From a virus (taxonomy: Duplodnaviria > Heunggongvirae > Uroviricota > Caudoviricetes): 40,997 bases of DNA. The stretch lies in the IMG/VR virus record IMGVR_UViG_2571042438_000006; one strand, written 5' to 3'. Below, piece after piece: positions 22,498 to 26,177 of this stretch (position 1 is its first letter; each line of letters opens with the position of its first letter). A program made the translations under genes and the position numbers. The notes under the pieces were generated by a model, which worked only from the letters and a program-made list of their open reading frames with translations, searched no databases and was not told the origin of the DNA.

Positions 22498-26177
<3,680 letters not shown>

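Follow-up and report, generated by a model that had tools for sequence, protein, structure and literature searches.

A lambda-like prophage of Escherichia coli carries a portal gene, homologous to gene B of phage lambda, that has lost a single base, and this deletion is very probably a real mutation that abolishes the function of the gene and is passed on vertically within a single clonal lineage of the bacterium. From the sequences compared here, the inactivation appears to be recent and to consist of a single hit. The frameshift is already annotated in RefSeq, where the label given by PGAP to every carrier checked is “phage portal protein, frameshifted”, and it is a case of ordinary prophage decay. 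Its general significance is small, but it offers a clean and datable first step of this process. By “the window” we refer to the whole stretch of DNA that was analysed, 40,997 nucleotides of the IMG/VR record IMGVR_UViG_2571042438_000006, and the features of the lesion are as follows in its coordinates:

24597..26197, plus strand: portal gene, homologue of lambda B, 1601 nt, a pseudogene by the loss of one base
24999..25000, plus strand: site of the 1-bp deletion, where the C of the Thr135 codon ACC is absent (pairwise comparison and alignment)
24597..25004, plus strand: open reading frame of the N-terminal fragment, 135 codons plus TGA, ending in ...KRTFT
25001..26197, plus strand: open reading frame of the C-terminal fragment, 398 codons, starting with MMIREGVAMHAF, the first residue being Met136
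25001..25004, plus strand: ATGA stop/start overlap of the two open reading frames, a product of the deletion

The base lost at window position 25000 is a C, which turns the ACC ATG of Thr135 and its neighbour into ACA TGA, so that the window has TTT ACA TGA where its relatives have TTT ACC ATG ATG. A second TGA directly follows the first one in the upstream frame. When the window, lambda B, an intact sister prophage and another carrier were aligned over the site, a single gap was found (the references have TTTACCATGATG, the window TTTACATGATG), and the remaining columns of the 62 were identical. Conceptual repair by one C restores an open reading frame of 1602 nt and 533 codons. A preliminary description of this DNA had proposed that the portal would be continuous only with one nucleotide restored at about 25000, and had noted that fragments of 135 and 398 codons together give 533, the length of lambda B. 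The single gap and the repaired frame bear out the first point, and both open reading frames were found as described. The intact codon, which had been given as ACN, can now be written as ACC, since the base absent from the window is C. The comparison with the intact B gene of related prophages suggested at that time has also been carried out, and both the sister prophage and lambda carry the extra base.

The repaired product of 533 amino acids does not differ from the portal of E. coli FDAARGOS_497, and it is identical to lambda gpB at 529 of 533 residues, the substitutions being S4P, I8T, A37S and P161S. At the nucleotide level, 32 of 1602 positions differ between the repaired gene and lambda B. 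As it stands in the window, the gene has no single uninterrupted frame, and the TGA after codon 135 makes it a pseudogene of the PF05136 portal family and not a functional member of it. For annotation, the two open reading frames belong merged as one pseudogene. A literature search on ST648 and prophage yielded nothing about this portal lesion.

Both pieces are recognized by the PF05136 profile (curated cut-off of 32.9 bits), the first with 92.2 bits over profile positions 2–100 and the second with 215.3 bits over positions 102–354, out of a total of 354. Once joined, they align over residues 1–533 with lambda gpB, PDB 8K38, and with six related entries. The gene lies downstream of the terminase and is flanked by the head-tail adaptor W and the protease/scaffold C, which is the position expected for the family, and lambda gpB shares with it both this position (W-B-C) and the length. 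The AlphaFold2 model of the repaired portal, obtained without an alignment, was unusable (mean pLDDT of 36.7), and for this reason we used the published domain limits of lambda gpB from cryo-EM: wing, 24–249 and 368–452; stem, 250–279 and 343–367; clip, 280–342; and crown, 453–511 (PMC10721106). Since the wing spans residues 24–249, the break at 135/136 falls midway along the first wing segment and not at a domain boundary (PMC10721106). The fragment of 135 residues thus comprises about half of this first segment and has no stem, clip or crown, all of which are found, with the rest of the wing, in the 398-codon fragment.

The distribution of the deletion was followed with a query of 71 nt centred on the junction against a set of 5,426 finished E. 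coli genomes, where 3,209 records matched at 4,521 places. A junction match of 100% was obtained in exactly 11 of the 5,426 genomes. The remaining records reached 98.6% at most and, among the matches listed, those of 98.6% extend over 72 bases, one more than the query; this extra base is present, again among the matches listed, at the ~4,500 other places with the same 71-nt context. At least eight countries are represented among the 11 carriers (China, Bangladesh, Thailand, Switzerland, India, Pakistan, Spain and Germany, besides other origins), and the hosts include both humans and dogs, the two isolates from Thailand being from dogs. Public contigs (NCBI, ENA, JGI/IMG and Logan) with an exact copy of the 135-aa fragment number 385, and those with the 398-aa fragment 357. 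The contig index lists the shorter fragment in 685 blocks, chiefly from short-contig drafts, and the draft contigs with the deletion include assemblies built directly from public read sets. Isolated phages are free of it: the 80 that have this stretch are all in frame. The preliminary description had left the choice between a fresh inactivation and a sequencing error, and the recurrence of the deletion within one clone, where 11 finished genomes and hundreds of draft contigs have it, together with an intact-portal sister prophage only four SNPs away over 36.4 kb, decides for the former.

All 11 carriers belong to a group of ~37–50 genomes (~37 by prophage identity, ~50 by the 49-kb flank), in which the prophage is at least 99.9% identical and the 49 kb of flanking chromosome show 0–3 SNPs. 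Two records of the group are named “ST648” and “648”, and from these record names we infer that the carrier clone is ST648. The host is a globally disseminated multidrug-resistant clone of E. coli, in which sister strains with an intact portal still circulate. The intact sister mentioned above is FDAARGOS_497, whose 36.4 kb in common with the window differ by those four SNPs plus the base under study. The three genomes that are identical to the window over the commonly held 24.7 kb of the left arm are all carriers, and the data are at least consistent with the carriers forming a single clade. Over the right arm, no finished genome is identical to the window, the best ones having one mismatch, so the genome from which the window derives is probably absent from the finished set. 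Genomes were also ranked by SNPs in the prophage arms, leaving out the deletion site, and in the 49 kb of flanking chromosome taken from a carrier; carriers and non-carriers interleave in this ranking, with only 0–3 SNPs across the clone. A left-arm insert of +1336 bp is found in five genomes, two of them carriers and three with an intact portal, and a common site would have made it a character in conflict with a single clade of carriers.

The insertion sequence IS2 was considered as a shared marker of the clade and discarded. Its sites differ between genomes, being in ren in OW967966 and in the gap between the HTH gene and essD in OZ501598, and IR53017, CUVET19-970 and EC488 have IS2 at neither of the two; insertions at such different sites are independent, and therefore uninformative for the clade. 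The IS2 copies map to positions 10249..11581 of L009 and about 5870..7235 of L014, and the element is actively transposing inside this prophage within the clone. Further strains show inserts of the size of IS1 (+777 bp) and of another IS3-family element (+1313 bp). The window itself begins with an IS2 end (positions 1..251), inserted in an sfmF-like fimbrial assembly gene. In the finished-genome set, the same IS2/sfmF-like junction occurs only in the carriers 806883-9-2019 and PRO_A-1534-6M-A_ESBL, and this common junction makes them the closest finished relatives of the window.

The surroundings of the portal gene are those of a lambda-like prophage integrated at argU, the DLP12 site:

1580..1656, plus strand: tRNA-Arg(tct) gene argU, the attachment end
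1672..2835, minus strand: integrase gene intD, 387 aa, intact
16248..16772, minus strand: lipocalin-family gene of a cargo cluster
16965..17924: YbgA-family gene of the cargo cluster
18276..19007: HTH-domain gene of the cargo cluster
21952..40745, plus strand: packaging, head and tail module, Nu1-A-W-(B)-C-D-E-FI-FII-Z-U-V-G/T-H-M-L-K-I-J

The annotation of the intact sister was mapped onto the window to check its genes. J and 45 other coding sequences, 46 genes in which int and Nu1 to J are included, are all open, and the portal gene is the only broken one among the genes checked. The lengths within the module are lambda-like with the exception of B: for packaging and head, A has 641 aa, W 68, C 439, D 110, E 341, FI 132 and FII 117; for the tail, Z has 192, U 131, V 246, G 140, H 853, M 109, L 232, K 247, I 190 and J 1159. 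The morphogenesis module had been described as otherwise complete, and within the window this holds, with Nu1, A, W and the listed genes from C to J all open.

Other observations concern the rest of the prophage. The cargo cluster (16248..19007) separates the Q antiterminator from the lysis genes. Upstream of int, at about 2691..3092 on the minus strand, an Xis-like open reading frame of 133 codons with an HTH_17 domain (35 bits) runs into the int coding region. PGAP annotates its equivalent in OW967966 as “partial, missing C-terminus”, which leaves the excision competence of the prophage uncertain. Both ylcJ (10950..11100) and a ZapA-like gene (about 3677..3893) are frameshifted according to PGAP in carriers as well as in intact-portal sisters; these lesions are older and common to the whole clone.

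A well-known relative is the DLP12 prophage of E. coli K-12, which has in common with the window the argU/intD site, emrE, ybcK, ybcN, ninE, ybcO, rusA and ylcG, as well as essD, rrrD and nohD, with appY beyond the right end. The gene set of the window also includes Q, Rz and nohD/Nu1. DLP12 stops at nohD, the whole head and tail module having been lost, whereas the window prophage keeps Nu1 to J and has only recently suffered its first inactivating lesion of a morphogenesis gene. Positions 1580..40997 of the window are a near full-length relative of the DLP12 remnant, and this prophage shows DLP12 before the loss of its head and tail genes.

Regarding the consequences of the lesion, translation would halt at the TGA directly after Thr135 and release a peptide of 135 residues, the remaining 398 codons would be out of frame and with no ribosome-binding site ahead, and no full-length gpB would be made. 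In the absence of full-length gpB, the dodecameric portal, on which prohead nucleation and terminase docking depend, could not form. Lambda B mutants yield no packaging-competent proheads, although active tails are still made. By analogy with them, replication, tails and lysis would still be expected from the induced prophage, but neither DNA packaging nor infectious particles. It is from the genetics of these mutants that we infer the phenotype, and most likely the deletion stops the packaging of prophage DNA. With the portal, an essential morphogenesis gene, frameshifted, the prophage is probably a defective one. Two differences separate it from the amber mutants of lambda B: the lesion is no laboratory nonsense mutation but a 1-bp deletion that arose in nature and became fixed in a lineage of bacteria, and a downstream open reading frame is left that starts exactly at the next residue.

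Single-base frameshifts in structural genes are also known from other pseudogenes of decaying prophages, such as the stf frameshift of laboratory lambda PaPa; stf is dispensable, however, whereas the portal is essential. The side-tail-fibre genes of this prophage, located beyond the window, are pseudogenes in all the relatives, and these genes are dispensable in lambda. Together with the partial Xis-like frame, they indicate that other defects may have been present in the prophage before the portal was hit. An incipient domestication of the tailocin type, with free lambda-type tails and no heads, was considered, and no evidence for it was found. Carrier and sister constitute a natural isogenic pair, in which the effect on the host of a portal-less, lysis- and tail-competent prophage could be asked.

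Virions could nevertheless be made if a co-resident lambdoid prophage provided a portal of ~98% identity in trans, or the sequence for a recombinational repair. E. coli genomes often hold several lambda-type portal genes, at up to six places per genome, and one of the carriers, CH10508, has two of them. The other 10 of the 11 finished carriers have a single lambda-type copy, against such a rescue, which we regard as improbable.

The ATGA overlap at Met136 has the consequence that all 533 residues are still encoded unchanged, as two polypeptides, which raises the reading of a split portal: the overlap would couple the translation of gpB(1–135) and gpB(136–533), and the two chains would come together as a functional dodecamer. 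This arrangement keeps every residue unaltered, and stop/start overlaps of the ATGA type support re-initiation. However, no Shine-Dalgarno motif was found in the 20 nt upstream of the ATG at 25001, which is the start of the 398-codon frame, while a GGAAGGTG motif precedes a later in-frame ATG at 25025. Production of this fragment would therefore require either termination-reinitiation or a start at that internal ATG. The break, moreover, cuts through the middle of both the conserved portal domain and wing segment 24–249 and not at a domain boundary, and a portal in two open reading frames is found in none of the 80 isolated phages. The portal sequences of the carriers are identical, so they provide no evidence of selection maintaining the split, and some carriers have suffered additional breaks in portal and terminase. 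If true, a naturally split portal protein would exist in a circulating clinical clone, but this is hard to believe on the evidence above.

A full-length portal could also result from recoding, that is, from a −1 shift that would leave the prophage functional or leaky. With respect to the upstream frame, the downstream one lies at −1 and opens no earlier than 24983, which confines the shift to a stretch of 22 nt, the only one where the two frames could be rejoined:

24983..25004, plus strand: 22 nt, GCGAAAACGCACGTTTACATGA

The direction of the shift is the correct one, the tRNA-Lys can re-pair at A_AAA, and the product of the slip would have 533 residues with four of them changed (RTFT to THVY). 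Nevertheless, no slippery heptamer of the X XXY YYZ type occurs in 24983..25004, whose only candidate is a weak A_AAA single-tRNA slip site at CGA AAA. No stimulatory RNA structure was detected in 24985..25085 either, where the minimum free energy (−32 kcal/mol) is no better than that of shuffled controls (−28.8 ± 3.4; z = −0.95). The two-frame state is derived and not conserved, being found in 11 clonal genomes only, whereas the ~4,500 other copies and the 80 phages are in frame.

A positive example is available in the same window: the slippery heptamer GGGAAAG at 31869, at the end of G, is a genuine site of programmed −1 frameshifting for gpG/gpGT. In that case, two overlapping frames likewise need a −1 shift, but the portal site has neither slippery heptamer nor two-frame conservation in relatives nor structure signal. 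At best, a slip at CGA AAA would represent the background leakiness of a frameshift mutant. Transcriptional slippage was also discarded, as the only homopolymer of at least five bases in the 5′ part of the gene, a T6 at 24848, is outside the 22-nt overlap. Programmed frameshifting had been called unlikely in the preliminary description, an opinion reinforced by the lack of heptamer and stimulatory structure and by an ancestral state that is in frame. We give recoding very little credence, and it is just as doubtful that the pair gpB(1–135) and gpB(136–533), or a rare product of −1 slipping, still forms a working portal.

The least probable explanation, to the point of being barely conceivable, is a sequencing or assembly error in a genome that truly reads ACC ATG and has an intact portal: single-base indels are the commonest assembly errors and the carrier assembly CP008697 has further indels in this prophage, but the context is a CC dinucleotide with no homopolymer run, different laboratories in different countries obtained the same deletion in 11 finished genomes, hundreds of draft contigs also have it (385 with the 135-aa fragment), and an error driven by the context would also affect the ~4,500 identical 71-nt contexts of other lineages. 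An error in a CC context would not stay in one clone while sparing those ~4,500 contexts, and hence the deletion is a heritable mutation.

Some carriers show damage beyond the portal deletion. In CP008697, an extra G frameshifts the tape-measure gene H (L001 27993; window 32589) and a deletion of 228 bp fuses K and I (L001 31876/31878; window 36472..36699), and the window has neither of the two lesions. The C-terminal portal piece of GCA_052952975.1 is split again into 118 and 274 aa, and its terminase has 470 aa, whereas the terminase of AP024694.1 has 581 aa (coordinates L021 1005..1608 and L022 1..401); in these two assemblies, the extra damage could be real decay or a matter of lower assembly quality. 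Since IS insertions are equally common in the intact-portal sisters, the extra lesions of carriers are no sign of an accelerated decay. A different truncated N-terminal fragment of a lambda-type portal (P0003, 147 aa, from E. coli KTE73) was found on 210 contigs, and corresponds to an independent portal inactivation that has spread in another lineage.
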